Shown one piece after another: positions 56,546 to 60,533 of a DNA stretch of 64,000 nucleotides. Location of the stretch: sequence record SRR20825006_652; one strand, 5' to 3'. The notes under the pieces were generated by a model. The model made no database searches. It saw only the letters and a program-made list of their open reading frames with translations, and had not been told where the DNA came from. Both the position numbers and the translations under genes were made by a program. Position 1 is the first letter of the stretch; every line of letters begins with the position of its first letter.

Positions 56546-57208
56546 CTAATCGTCTTCTCGAAGTTTGGGGATGGGTTGGATAAGCTCTTTAGAATTTTGA
56601 GAGGGATCGTTAACTAAATCTGGCACACGATAAACAGCCAAATCTGGTATTAGAGCGGTATCTTTGAACTTTGAGGCGATAATATTTTTTATATCTCCAT
56701 TTAGCCAAGCGTTGAAGTCTGCAGGTTCCAATACACAAGGCATGGTTTCTTCAAGTGGTTTTAAAAGAACATTTGCAGGCATAGTTAAAACTGCAAACTG
56801 AATGCTTGAGTTGCCATGCTTATCAATAATTTCAGAATAGAATCCAGCTAAACCAAGTACAGGCAAAGAAAGGCGACGTACGTAAAATGGTAGAGGATCA
56901 TTAACGGTTTTCTTCCACATATAAAATCCGCTGGCAGGAATGATACATGGATGTGCTTGTACCGAAGTTGCTAACTTTGTGTTATTAAGAATAGCGTCTT
57001 TATCAATTGCTGAGGTAGTAACACCCTTTTTTTCTGAAATCCCCCAAATGCCCTTTTTAATAATTCGAAGATTTGTATTTAGAACAACGGGCATCAATGA
57101 GTTAGGGAAGACATTGAACGCGGTAGTATACATCGAATCGGAATTAGATTGAACTGCAAAAGTACGTTCTATAATTTCTTTGTCAGCATTTAACACATAT
57201 CTTAGCAT
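56546..57208 (-). CDS. SRAP/YedK (HMCES-like) family protein, catalytic residues absent
   Basis: FNVFP..MPVV, CIIPASGFYMW, GLAGF and MPCVL..WL fold motifs; N-terminus is MLRY rather than MCGR. Confidence 0.8.
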   Translation of the reverse strand: MLRYVLNADKEIIERTFAVQSNSDSMYTTAFNVFPNSLMPVVLNTNLRIIKKGIWGISEKKGVTTSAIDKDAILNNTKLATSVQAHPCIIPASGFYMWKKTVNDPLPFYVRRLSLPVLGLAGFYSEIIDKHGNSSIQFAVLTMPANVLLKPLEETMPCVLEPADFNAWLNGDIKNIIASKFKDTALIPDLAVYRVPDLVNDPSQNSKELIQPIPKLREDD

Positions 57209-57280: not shown

Positions 57281-58216
57281 ATGAATCCTTTTTATAATGT
57301 GCAAGAAAATAGGTTTCGAGCTGGTATTCGAATTCTTCTTTACCTGCTCCTCACTACAATTTTTGCTTTTTCAGCGGAGTTTGTAAATCACATAGCGTTA
57401 AAATACATTGCACTTTCTATCGCCTTCTTTTTAGCCGTTTATTTGGCGGCTACAGGTTTAGATAAAAGAAAGTTATCTGGTGTGGGACTTGAATGGAGCC
57501 GTAAATGGAAGAAGGAATTTCTACTGGGTGTTGTGATGGCTTTTGTAGCACAAACAGTCATATTTCTAATTGAATGGCAAAGTGGTTGGATAGAAATTAC
57601 AGGCTTAGGTTGGCAAAGAGTAGACGAAGAATTCTGGATTTTTTCAATACTTTTTGTACTCATTCAAATGCTCTCGGTGGGTTTTTACGAAGAAGTTCTA
57701 TTTCGTGGATATCCCGTTCGTAATTTGGCAGAGGGATTTACTCTTGGGAAATTAAGTCCAAAAGTTGGGGTGGTAATTGCGGTGTTTTTTACTTCTTCAT
57801 TGTTTGGTATTGCTCATGCAACAAACGCTAATGCGAGTTTAATCTCTACCTCAAATATAGTGCTAGCGGGGTTTATGCTAGCCTTACCTTATATATTAAC
57901 GGGGCGGTTGGCTCTTTCAATCGGAATTCATTTCTCTTGGAATTTTGTAATGGGTGGAATTTATGGGTTACCTGTCAGCGGAACCACCGTTCGCAGATCG
58001 TTGATACAAGTTCAGGAAGTGGGGCCAGATATTTTTACAGGAGGCAAATTTGGCCCTGAGGCTGGTATTCTTGGTATTCTCGGAATGTTAATCATTTCGT
58101 TCTGGGTGTATATATATCAAAAGAAAATGGAAGGAAAAGTGAGTATTCATCATTCATTTCAAAAAAAATATCTTCTAGAAAGAGAAAGTTTTCACGGAAA
58201 AGATGAGCTTGCTTAA
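57281..58216 (+). CDS. CPBP (Abi/CAAX) intramembrane glutamic endopeptidase
   Basis: EEVLFRGY, FGIAH and HFSWN motifs. Confidence 0.9.
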   Translation: MNPFYNVQENRFRAGIRILLYLLLTTIFAFSAEFVNHIALKYIALSIAFFLAVYLAATGLDKRKLSGVGLEWSRKWKKEFLLGVVMAFVAQTVIFLIEWQSGWIEITGLGWQRVDEEFWIFSILFVLIQMLSVGFYEEVLFRGYPVRNLAEGFTLGKLSPKVGVVIAVFFTSSLFGIAHATNANASLISTSNIVLAGFMLALPYILTGRLALSIGIHFSWNFVMGGIYGLPVSGTTVRRSLIQVQEVGPDIFTGGKFGPEAGILGILGMLIISFWVYIYQKKMEGKVSIHHSFQKKYLLERESFHGKDELA

Positions 58217-58310
58217 CAACTTTCGTATATTCAAAAAATCTGAGCCATGTGGCCTAGATATCGATCTTTGAAAATTGAACTATAACGCCAAAAGAAGAAG
58301 AGGTGTAACA

Positions 58311-60377
58311 TTGTCTTTTGCAGAATTTGGCCTGAGTCCTGAACTAATGAATGGACTGGCCGATACCAGAATAGAAACCCCAACACCTCTCCAACAATTA
58401 GTAGTACCTGTAGCATTACAAGGCAAACATTTACTTGTAAAAACTGAAGCTGCAGACGAAGGAGCTTTTTTGATTCCTATACTACAAACACTGACGACCA
58501 ATGGAGAGGTTTCCGGCACACGAGTTTTAATATTAACACCATCTATAGAGCGGGCAAGAATTATTGATGAGCGAATTTGGGCTCTGGGCTATCATGCTCA
58601 AATAAGTAGCGCTTCTGTTTCCATGAAAGGAGACAAGAAAGAGCAAGAAAATGCCGTTTTAGATGGAGCTCCGGTGATTGTTGCCAATCCCGGGCGGTTA
58701 GTTGACATATTGGAAAAAACCAGAGTTGGCTTCAAAAATCTCACTACCATAGTGATTGATGAAGCGCATAACATGGAAAATTTTAACCTAGTTAGTAGGG
58801 TGAAGTCTATCTTAGAATTGGTAGAAAACACTCCTCAGGTTATGGTTTTTTCTACGTCAATGAATAAAGCTACTCAAGAGCTTGCTAAGACTGCGCTTGT
58901 CAATCCAGAGTATATCGGCTTTGACGAATCAGAAATTGATGCTTCTGTACCTAAAGAAAAGGAGCCATCGGCACCTCCTGTTGATGAAAAAACAGCGCAG
59001 GAACGATTGAAGAAAATTTCTGTAAAAGTGGTTCTCAATCCTGAAAAGAATCAAGAAAAAACGACCGAAGAAGCCGCTGTTGAAGCCGAGCTGGTGGAAG
59101 AAACTACTTCAGAAACAGAGCTTAATGAAGAAGCATCGAATAATTCGGAAGTACTTGAGGAAACTACAGTTGAGGCTGAAGCGAAATCAGAAGAGAATAA
59201 CGCTGAAGCAACGCTGGAAGTGGCTGAGGTTGCAGAAGTAGAAACTCCTGATCAAACGGATGAGACCGAAGAGGTTTCAAATATTGAAGAAACTAAAGAA
59301 GACAGTGTTTCTCCTGAAGAAAAGCTAAAGAAAGCCAGTGTTAAAGTAGTGCTAAACCCTAAAAAAGAGGAAGAAAGCGCAGTTAAAGGTGAATCTGAGG
59401 AAGCGGAAACTAAAGTTGAAGAAGATGCTCCAGAAGAACAAGCTACTCCTGAAGCGAATGAAGCTTCGGAACAAAAGGATGCTGTTAAGCCAAAAGAAAA
59501 GTTGAAAGCTGCTAGTATCAAAGTAGTGCTTAAGCAAGATCGTGTTGAAGTAGAAGATAATTCTGCGGATAAAGATTCTGATAATGCCAAGCCAGATCCA
59601 ATAACTGGAGACTTGACTCAAGGATATATTAACGTGCCTCCACGGATGAAAATATCCACGTTAATGGCGCATTTGGAAAAATCACCTACCGATAAAGTGG
59701 TAGTTTTTGCCGCTTCAAAGCGTACTACAGATCGTTTATTCCGCATTATTCTTAAGAAAAACTGGGGCGTTGTAAGCGTTCATGAAGGAATCGATCAAGC
59801 AACATTCGACGAACGTTTCGAGAAGTTTACTTCTGGCGAAATGAAAGTCCTTCTTGTTGGTGGGATTCCTGCAAAAGACATCAATATTGATGAAGTAAAA
59901 CAAGTTATTAACTACGACGTGCCGGGAGATGTAGATGAATATCGCTACCGTGCAGAGTTAGTTGGAAATGGAAAAGCCGCTCGCATTGTATCTTTGGTTT
60001 CCAAAATGGATAAAGAAGATATCGATCGTATTGTGAAAGAAGCAGGTTATGCACCTGTTGAAATTACACTTCCAGACGAAATAAAAGAAAAGAAGCAGCG
60101 GAAAAAACCAGCAGCTAAAAAGTCTGATGAGGAGAAGTCTACAAAGCCTAATAAAAGAACGGCTAAAGGTCCAAGGGATAGCAAACGTGGTCGTGGTGGA
60201 AACAATGCCACCCGTAATGATCGCAATAAAGCTAACCCTAAAGCTAAGACTCGTAGCCCGAAAAAAGAATACGAATTGCCAAGACCAAGTTATGATGGGC
60301 TCTCAGGAGGTCGAGATGGTAAAGACTCAGGTAAATCAGGGGGGATGTTTGGTTGGGTTAAAAAATTATTTAACTAG
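58311..60377 (+). CDS. DEAD/DEAH-box helicase-like protein with degenerate ATPase motifs and an acidic insertion
   Basis: Q motif F..FGL..PTPLQ, NPGRL, IDEAH and VINYDVP; likely TTG start 58311 behind AGAGGTG. Confidence 0.85.
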   Translation: MSFAEFGLSPELMNGLADTRIETPTPLQQLVVPVALQGKHLLVKTEAADEGAFLIPILQTLTTNGEVSGTRVLILTPSIERARIIDERIWALGYHAQISSASVSMKGDKKEQENAVLDGAPVIVANPGRLVDILEKTRVGFKNLTTIVIDEAHNMENFNLVSRVKSILELVENTPQVMVFSTSMNKATQELAKTALVNPEYIGFDESEIDASVPKEKEPSAPPVDEKTAQERLKKISVKVVLNPEKNQEKTTEEAAVEAELVEETTSETELNEEASNNSEVLEETTVEAEAKSEENNAEATLEVAEVAEVETPDQTDETEEVSNIEETKEDSVSPEEKLKKASVKVVLNPKKEEESAVKGESEEAETKVEEDAPEEQATPEANEASEQKDAVKPKEKLKAASIKVVLKQDRVEVEDNSADKDSDNAKPDPITGDLTQGYINVPPRMKISTLMAHLEKSPTDKVVVFAASKRTTDRLFRIILKKNWGVVSVHEGIDQATFDERFEKFTSGEMKVLLVGGIPAKDINIDEVKQVINYDVPGDVDEYRYRAELVGNGKAARIVSLVSKMDKEDIDRIVKEAGYAPVEITLPDEIKEKKQRKKPAAKKSDEEKSTKPNKRTAKGPRDSKRGRGGNNATRNDRNKANPKAKTRSPKKEYELPRPSYDGLSGGRDGKDSGKSGGMFGWVKKLFN

Positions 60378-60403
60378 CAAGTATCTGCGATTATTTTGAA
60401 CTG

Positions 60404-60441
60404 AAAAGACTCTTTAAGAAATTGAAGAGTCTTTTTTTTTT
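60404..60441 (+). terminator. Intrinsic terminator
   Basis: AAAAGACTCTT...AAGAGTC followed by T10. Confidence 0.85.
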
Positions 60442-60533
60442 GAGGCTTTAAAGGAATCTTTAAAACCATTGCTATTGATTGTAAATTCAGCAATAATTGA
60501 AGAGAGCATAAATCCTAAATCAGGGAGTTTAAC

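Follow-up and report, generated by a model that had tools for sequence, protein, structure and literature searches.

What a bacterium does with a DEAD-box helicase core that no longer carries the residues for ATP hydrolysis is the question raised by one gene in a 64,000-nucleotide stretch of sequence record SRR20825006_652 (one strand; hereafter the window). The gene encodes a predicted protein of 688 amino acids, to whose residues all motif positions below refer. The original prediction had described it as a DEAD-box pseudo-helicase with an intact frame, a Shine-Dalgarno-like sequence and a terminator, and had proposed an ATPase-dead RNA clamp or scaffold with a basic RhlE-like tail. The frame is indeed intact and the catalytic motifs are lost: every string that had been quoted is present in the translation, all 688 codons are open, GAGGTG stands 5 nt before a TTG codon and a 15-pair stem with a T run follows the gene. 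Of 72 aligned orthologs, 69 begin with TTG, two with GTG and one with ATG. Judging from the motifs, canonical catalysis is very probably dead. The fuller picture, in which a non-catalytic DEAD-box paralogue serves as a membrane-tethered scaffold with a basic RNA-binding tail, seems to us probable, if only just.

The two RecA-like domains of a DEAD-box (superfamily 2) protein are recognized by Pfam (DEAD at residues 25-190, E 9.6e-22; Helicase_C at 447-547, E 4.3e-15), by an AlphaFold2 model built from an 86-row alignment and by Foldseek, which ranks only DEAD-box helicases at the top (DDX54, CshA, Hera, DbpA and eIF4A). The closest solved relatives by sequence are Hera (4kbf, E 8.2e-34) and CshA (5ivl). 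A Q motif is present, with F3 followed by PTPLQ at 24-28, and Q28 is kept in at least 90% of 60 family members. The Walker A sequence AxTGSGKT is missing: in the HMMER alignment VKTEAADEGAF, which includes KTEAADEG (44-51), lies opposite ARTGTGKTLAF of Hera 4kbf. Likewise, YRAELVGN-G (YRAELVGN, 546-553) is found opposite HRSGRTGRAG in motif VI, and motif V has become GGIPAKDIN (AKDIN, 521-525), so that neither motif has the form found in DEAD-box helicases. Motif II reads DEAH (150-153) instead of DEAD, and the SAT of motif III is replaced by STS (181-183) in the window protein and by SAS, SGT, SES and others across the family. The positions for RNA contact are changed too, in motif Ia (PSIERA, 77-82), GG (KG), Ib (NPGR) and V (GG replacing T/S-D), and the protein ends in GWVKKLFN. 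All NCBIfam cut-offs for DEAD-box equivalogs (CshA, SrmB, DbpA, RhlE, RhlB and DeaD) are missed by far, the best score being that of CshA with 158.2 bits against a cut-off of 646.

These losses are shared by a whole family of proteins. The ortholog in the nearest genome (G001) is 100% identical, and all 23 genomes of the genus possess an uninterrupted ortholog of 532-688 amino acids with an acidic loop of the same kind, for example VKNESEDNGAF or VKCDAEDEGAF. A pattern scan of GTDB species genomes gave 154 relatives; 75 loci were retained, which carry the labels Balneola, Gracilimonas, Rhodohalobacter or Balneolaceae, save three metagenome-assembled genomes labelled otherwise. In an order-wide search of 201 genomes with RecA2 and the tail as query (residues 433-688, E<=1e-30), 128 of the 134 sampled genomes of the family, Balneolaceae to judge from record titles, matched, each with one full copy without stops, and none of the 67 genomes from six sister families did. 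The six non-matching genomes of the family come from three genera with small genomes (1.7-2.6 Mb). A profile search of 1.84 billion representatives set about 30 family clusters apart from thousands of ordinary DEAD-box helicases, and public records name family members plainly 'DEAD/DEAH box helicase'. One genome of the genus additionally harbors a second open frame of 171 amino acids (G008:C9:22017-22502, minus strand) which is 64% identical to residues 503-688; covering the end of RecA2, the tail and the C-terminal motif, it may be a partial duplicate.

How complete the degeneration is can be read from a table of the motifs in 62 rows of the family and 24 intact comparators. HRxGR of motif VI and ARGxD of motif V, found in every one of the comparators, are missing from each of the 62 rows. 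GxGK is absent in 56 of the 62; the other six read SGMGK(N/H/D)G, with the Lys but without the Thr, and some of these still show DEAD or DELD. Elsewhere in the family motif II appears as DRSD, DQAE, DSMD or DELD, and the acidic residues of the old P-loop do not occupy conserved positions, which lends no support to the original suggestion that this loop may mimic bound phosphate. Orthologs with an intact GKT or HRIGR, which would have pointed to strain-specific decay, were looked for and none was found, motif VI being lost in 62 of 62 rows. The gene is thus a family-wide, core single-copy gene of the Balneolaceae, a marine bacterial family, and not a product of strain decay.

The ortholog alignment also allowed the dN/dS comparison (ratio of nonsynonymous to synonymous divergence) that had been suggested as a check, and both RecA folds turn out to be conserved under strong purifying selection. 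With the Nei-Gojobori method applied to 12 ortholog pairs, dN/dS is 0.01-0.06 in RecA2 (8 of the 12 pairs, those with measurable dS), 0-0.17 in the C-terminal motif and 0.17-0.35 in the insert between the two domains. The values for RecA1 range from 0.00 to 0.45 and are inflated by an abnormally low dS. In a clade without this anomaly and without RNA-level constraint (L096/L098), RecA1 has a proportion of nonsynonymous differences (pN) of 0.023 and of synonymous differences (pS) of 0.403; since pN/pS is as low as 0.057 there, RecA1 is constrained as protein as well. RecA2 is the most conserved part of the protein, and together with the tail it forms the best-matching stretch in distant family members.

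Between the RecA domains, the short linker of ordinary DEAD-box proteins is replaced by an acidic insert whose length varies from about 30 to 230 amino acids among orthologs. Inside this otherwise fast-evolving segment a repeat motif, (E)KLxKASVKVVLNPE, is conserved, of which Balneola inserts contain up to three copies. By a looser pattern (KL..x.x.xxL), 11 of 72 orthologs have no copy, 26 have one, 7 have two and 28 have three. Docking of the repeats on the RecA domains was considered and rejected, as they are modelled with a predicted local distance difference test score (pLDDT) of about 41-77 and make no confident contact.

The C-terminal part is composed of three elements, and here the RhlE-like tail of the original prediction needs to be refined: a basic tail is present, and it is better described as a basic tail followed by the sequence LPRPxYDxLSGGR and a MinD-like amphipathic end. 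The basic tail is retained in all members; its sequence drifts and its charge does not. Basic tails of other DEAD-box proteins bind RNA non-specifically. LPRPxYDxLxGG occurs in 70 of 72 orthologs, and LPRPxYDxLSGGR is absent from the tails of the intact tail-bearing relatives inspected; it appears specific to the dead family and looks like a short linear docking motif. An xKKLF end is found in all 72 orthologs. A helical wheel places M/F/W/V/L/F on one face and G/G/G/K/K/N on the other, and the model contains a short terminal helix at residues 683-686. The position at the extreme C-terminus and the basic-hydrophobic amphipathic pattern are those of a MinD-type tail. The membrane-targeting sequence of E. 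coli MinD is KGFLKRLFGG (PMC5471200); it closely resembles the family ends KGFFKRLFS (an ortholog in another genus), KGFFGKIKKLFGG and GMFGWVKKLFN. By this likeness of its end the tail points to the membrane.

Intact relatives of the family carry a similar peptide. Tail ends of intact DEAD-box helicases include ...GIVGFFKKLFGGK, ...GVFGFIKKIFG and ...GFFSGLFKKLFGKK; the metagenome proteins P0030, P0043, P0045 and P0049, all intact, end in ...GFFKKLFGGK-type tails. The nearest genome encodes four intact DEAD-box paralogues, which implies that other genes supply helicase activity; the one nearest to the pseudo-helicase (about 510 amino acids, 39% identical in RecA1) ends in ...KGFWGIIKSFIPRFGKD. 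The Balneolaceae paralogue L022 (G001:C8) has a counterpart in Balneola vulgaris, WP_026167125.1, with the record name 'DEAD/DEAH box helicase'. As an observation in its own right, intact helicases of the metagenome set and L022 thus end in MinD-like amphipathic peptides (...GFFKKLFGG, ...KGFWGIIKSFIPRF), which suggests helicase-borne membrane tethering in this lineage. Several intact relatives and the pseudo-family moreover have in common a W/F-A-x-GYH signature after motif Ia.

In a tree computed from both RecA domains (quick IQ-TREE of 86 rows, supports by the Shimodaira-Hasegawa-like approximate likelihood ratio test, SH-aLRT, only), the 24 intact helicases fall on one side of a branch with support 100. 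The GxGK-type pseudo-forms branch beside them and 51 fully degenerate forms make up a clade with support 96. With the root assumed among the intact helicases, motifs V and VI were lost first and Walker A decayed later. The family would stem from an intact DEAD-box helicase that was duplicated when it had already acquired the basic tail and the MinD-like C-terminal amphipathic helix; its ancestor would have lost motifs V and VI, after which Walker A would have decayed stepwise from GxGK(N/H/D) to a fully acidic loop.

The low dS of RecA1 raises a second question, which concerns the messenger RNA. In many pairs dS of the RecA1-coding part is 4-14 times lower than that of RecA2 (0.084 vs 0.81, 0.10 vs 1.0 and 0.12 vs 0.78, for example). 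Sliding identity delimits a block from about -60 to +570 (window about 58250-58880, about 630 nt) which is 92-100% identical in the closest pairs shown, whereas the flanking DNA is 70-90% identical or unrelated. The ratio of pS in RecA1 to that in RecA2 lies at 0.07-0.35 for Balneola and at 0.25-0.54 for Gracilimonas; for a Rhodohalobacter-like clade it is about 1. Between genera, identical residues use the same codon at a fraction of 0.51-0.63 in RecA1, as compared to 0.32-0.46 in RecA2. An overlapping gene was rejected as cause: over the first 621 nt, none of the other frames stays open consistently among 72 orthologs, and the best of these frames has a median of 92 codons as compared to 73.5 in the RecA2 control.

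Alignments of 22 and 53 ortholog DNA sequences revealed several elements in this block. Upstream of it are promoter-like boxes, which we take to match the Bacteroidetes -33/-7 consensus, and next to the covarying leader hairpin lies the near-invariant leader element GATCTTTGAAAATTGAAC. In the coding region, three pairs of the hairpin at the start of the gene are compensated, in 9, 5 and 19 of the 53 sequences; one of these compensations involves the third positions of Ser and Gly codons and occurs in 19 sequences. CCUCUCC in the Q-motif codons and its predicted partner GGAGAGG are almost invariant, synonymous positions included, with one compensated pair in one ortholog (L088). Pairs were counted on a RNAalifold structure drawn from the same alignment, which favours that structure; on this basis 92.9% of alignment cells are paired (shuffled mean 89.8%, slid controls 36-46%), 241 cells have both sides changed (shuffled mean 100.6, reached in 0 of 500 shuffles; slid controls 39-83) and the covariation score is 0.180 (shuffled mean 0.124, slid controls at most 0.068). 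The RecA1-coding RNA is also more stable than synonymous shuffles in four of four constrained orthologs (z -2.2 to -3.3, with 0-2 of 50 shuffles as low), as compared to z -0.6 to -1.3 and one value of -3.3 for RecA2 controls and -1.5 for the unconstrained clade. None of the Rfam 15 covariance models matches the 5' block in a search of 58150-60500; the only matches with E<=1 in that interval are two at the terminator, far below their gathering scores.

Regulatory roles considered for single elements were not borne out. RNAalifold pairs GATCTTTGAAAATTGAAC with codons about 71-75, and covariation for this pairing was looked for in the 53 orthologs without any being seen. As a shared regulatory box the element was rejected, since in three genomes it occurs with 0-1 mismatch only at the pseudo-helicase gene, other matches carrying 2 mismatches. 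A switch sequestering the Shine-Dalgarno sequence is not supported either. The Q-motif codons contain ACACCUCU, a complement of the Shine-Dalgarno sequence AGAGGUGU, which RNAalifold once paired with codons about 75-78. Opening of the Shine-Dalgarno and start region in the native -62..+258 RNA costs 4.3-7.0 kcal/mol, which exceeds the mean of 40 synonymous shuffles in only one of five orthologs and is lower in two (z -1.0 and -2.4).

We conclude that a conserved structured RNA domain overlaps the RecA1 codons. Comprising the 5' untranslated region and the RecA1-coding part of the mRNA, it would most likely set message stability or translation. Interspecies recombination may add to the synonymous pattern; as its only cause, by repeated exchange or sweeps between species and without selection at the RNA level, we consider it improbable. 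Such exchange would fit Balneola clade B, where RecA1 pS stays flat at 0.05-0.085 while RecA2 pS goes from 0.24 to 0.585, and the trio L084/L085/L086, which is patchy. Against it speak the compensatory pairs, the stability of the RecA1-coding RNA relative to synonymous shuffles in all four constrained orthologs, the higher codon identity of RecA1 between genera and the fact that the block starts at the leader also in loci with a different upstream gene.

In 50 of 72 loci, spread over several genera, the gene immediately preceding that of the pseudo-helicase on its strand encodes a CPBP/Rce1-like intramembrane protease, and in many of these loci, deep clades included, about 90-100 nt separate the two genes. 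Its EExxxR, FxxxH and HxxxN residues are invariant in 36 of 36 aligned orthologs, so by motif the protease is catalytically intact. In a fold test the protease and residues 645-688 scored 0.39 as compared to 0.01 for the best control, with runs agreeing in at least 49% of contacts and a partner pLDDT of at least 44. Among solved complexes, 51 of 78 reach the mark applied, as do 2 of 108 mismatched pairs; where the score is no higher than 0.60, only 5 of the 78 reach it together with all 4 passing mismatches, and because of this the pass is weak. The result lends weak support to the protease as a possible partner, a lead and not a finding. The gene for an SRAP protein further upstream is conserved in its position as well and has no evident functional link to the pseudo-helicase.

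Taken together, we favor the following function. The pseudo-helicase would sit on the inner membrane face through its terminal helix, the basic tail would hold RNA, and the inert RecA core, above all RecA2, would provide with LPRPxYDxLSGGR a docking surface, making the protein a scaffold and no motor, possibly in cooperation with the adjacent membrane protease. The ATPase-dead scaffold proposed from the letters thus holds insofar as the protein is a selected DEAD-box derivative from which the Walker A Lys and the residues of motifs V and VI are gone; the 'RNA clamp' finds no support. Clamping on RNA by DEAD-box proteins normally needs ATP-driven closure, and motifs Ia, GG, Ib and V have in addition changed where they would contact RNA, so that a clamp is doubtful.

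Several observations weigh against this scaffold. By the Eisenberg scale the hydrophobic moment of the 11-residue tail ranks only 60 of 678 windows, and the terminal helix is modelled at a pLDDT of about 59. The putative peripheral membrane tether is proposed from sequence likeness and the putative non-specific RNA binding by the basic tail from composition. ATP may still be bound at a non-canonical site, in line with the wide retention of the Q-motif Gln, whose codons are also under RNA-level constraint. The synteny with the protease gene is lost in one Balneola clade, and a fold-test result of the kind obtained is wrong more often than right unless the pairing is likely beforehand. Evidence for expression is weak: contigs of four RNA libraries from two studies cover only 58255-58512 and 58595-58742, with a 33-nt piece with loose ends at 59413-59445 and the remainder of the gene uncovered. 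As the covered block is near-identical among species, these contigs, which may derive from relatives or from DNA, prove neither a transcript of this organism nor its ends.

That the protein is instead still an ATPase or helicase with a rearranged site, for example with the Lys of LLVK before the old P-loop as substitute for that of Walker A, we judge very unlikely. In its favor, K44 does not vary across the genus alignment, the clade of the window retains the Q motif and the D-E of motif II, and the cleft-forming folds are confidently modelled. In other clades, however, K44 is replaced (LVETHSNDD, LVINT, LIVLT); 62 of 62 rows lack the Arg of motif V and the two Arg of motif VI that bind phosphate, motif II drifts to DRSD, DQAE or DSMD, and the acidic loop would repel phosphates. 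Neither does a decaying relic without function of its own, in which the conservation of the 5' half would reflect an RNA element only, seem credible. The strongly constrained synonymous sites of the RecA1-coding part and the covarying helices are what such a relic would leave, yet it is already contradicted by the selection data: about 128 genomes with a match show no stop or frameshift, the low dN/dS of RecA2 is found where RNA-level constraint is missing, RecA1 is constrained in the clade without synonymous constraint, and both domains fold confidently.

A role as regulator or decoy acting on proteins only, which competes or pairs with the intact tail-bearing paralogue (L022 type) or with an RNase for a shared membrane site or partner and in which RNA binding plays no part, deserves more attention even if we hold it to be unlikely. 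Ancestry and tail type are common to the family and intact helicases, the most conserved part of the protein is RecA2, which is the usual docking domain for partners of DEAD-box proteins, and the family-specific short linear motif LPRPxYDxLSGGR is present. What speaks against this role is the basic tail, kept in all members despite sequence drift, which suggests a charge-based function of RNA type. A bolder combination may be sketched, which as a whole is unlikely: a helicase shell at the membrane whose C-terminal motif docks on the CPBP protease or is trimmed by it, with the RNA domain of about 600 nt, which would span the entire RecA1-coding part, being read for feedback control by the protein itself or by an active paralogue. 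If true, a helicase gene would have become a regulatory module that combines RNA and protein.

Features of the pseudo-helicase locus (positions in the window; aa, residues of the protein)
Feature	Position	Strand	Observations
SRAP (SOS-response-associated peptidase) gene	56546..57208	-	divergent upstream in 54/72 loci
CPBP/Rce1-like intramembrane protease gene	57281..58216	+	Pfam Rce1-like, E 1.5e-15
Promoter-like boxes (TTG ... TATATTCA)	58209..58233	+	conserved columns in the 22- and 53-sequence alignments; overlap 3' end of CPBP gene
5' leader hairpin	58239..58258	+	4/4 pairs covary in 53 orthologs; both sides changed in 13-27 sequences per pair
Near-invariant leader element GATCTTTGAAAATTGAAC	58263..58280	+	invariant or >=90% conserved in 53 orthologs
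Shine-Dalgarno GAGGTG	58300..58305	+	5 nt ahead of TTG at 58311; invariant among orthologs
Pseudo-helicase coding sequence	58311..60377	+	688 codons, then TAG; TTG start; open throughout
RecA1-like domain, aa 1-205	58311..58925	+	Pfam DEAD; pLDDT 91-98; motifs I, Ia, II (DEAH) and III degenerate
Coding-region hairpin GGCCUGAGYCC / GGRCUGGCC	58328..58362	+	99.2% of cells paired
CCUCUCC within Q-motif codons	58386..58392	+	predicted pairing with GGAGAGG; 99.7% paired
GGAGAGG	58503..58509	+	predicted partner of 58386-58392
Acidic disordered insert, aa 206-432 (227 residues)	58926..59606	+	net charge -39; pLDDT mostly <50
Insert repeat 1, (E)KLxKxSVKVVLNPE	58998..59045	+	L233, S237, V238, V240, V241, L242 and N243 invariant in genus alignment
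Insert repeat 2, (E)KLxKxSVKVVLNPE	59316..59363	+	genus alignment
Insert repeat 3 (EKLKAASIKVVLKQD)	59493..59534	+	genus alignment
RecA2-like domain, aa 433-585	59607..60065	+	Pfam Helicase_C; pLDDT 88-97; motifs V and VI lost
Basic low-complexity tail, aa 586-655	60066..60275	+	net charge +15; disordered in model
Family signature LPRPSYDGLSGGRDG, then terminal amphipathic GMFGWVKKLFN	60276..60374	+	ortholog counts, helical wheel, model
Intrinsic-terminator-like stem-loop and T run	60403..60446	+	15-pair stem at 60403-60436

As a near-universal single-copy gene with stepwise decay, the pseudo-helicase is a natural experiment on the use of a helicase core without ATP, and the MinD-like tail borne by helicases suggests that RNA helicases of this lineage reach the membrane alone and not via RNase E or RNase Y. 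A coding stretch of about 570 nt with suppressed synonymous change and covarying helices would be a rare bacterial example of a long structured RNA within an open reading frame; it also gives warning that the kept Q-motif codons partly reflect selection at the RNA level. Since the gene is present in the cultured strains Gracilimonas tropica DSM 19535 and Balneola sp. EhC07, these readings are testable.

Similar to the bacterial DEAD-box helicases CshA, Hera, RhlE, SrmB and DbpA, the protein has two RecA-like domains, a Q motif, the PGR of motif Ib, motifs IV and Va and a basic C-terminal extension, and CshA and Hera are also among its best fold matches by Foldseek. Walker A, SAT, V and VI are kept in these enzymes and lost here, whereas the 227-residue acidic insert and LPRPxYDxLSGGR are found only here. 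The intact tail-bearing helicases (P0028, P0030, P0031, P0043, P0045, P0049, P0050, all metagenome proteins, and L022) are closer: they form the sister group of the pseudo-family in the tree and have the GYH signature, the basic tail and the terminal amphipathic peptide, but they keep GSGKT, DEAD, SAT, ARGID and HRIGRT.

In eukaryotes, ribosome assembly and RNA interference are known to involve pseudoenzymes derived from DEAD-box helicases. In the literature that could be searched, which excluded subscription journals and was partly available, neither a bacterial DEAD-box pseudo-helicase nor a helicase carrying its own membrane-targeting sequence was found, consistent with the earlier statement that no such bacterial family was known to be described. 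As far as the available part of the source describes it, Utp25/Def is a eukaryotic DEAD-box pseudo-helicase that acts as a non-enzymatic assembly factor and resembles the present protein in having a DEAD-box fold with degenerate catalytic motifs (PMC9539457). Unlike the bacterial protein, Utp25/Def is eukaryotic and nucleolar and is without a membrane tail; kinship was compared at the superfamily level only. For the proposed tether, the nearest parallels are the membrane-targeting sequence of MinD and the membrane-targeting segment of RNase E, in both of which a short amphipathic helix, terminal or internal, anchors an otherwise soluble protein at the inner membrane. In the systems covered by the sources available, RNase E or RNase Y holds the tether and the helicase is recruited indirectly, whereas here the helicase-like protein itself bears the peptide.

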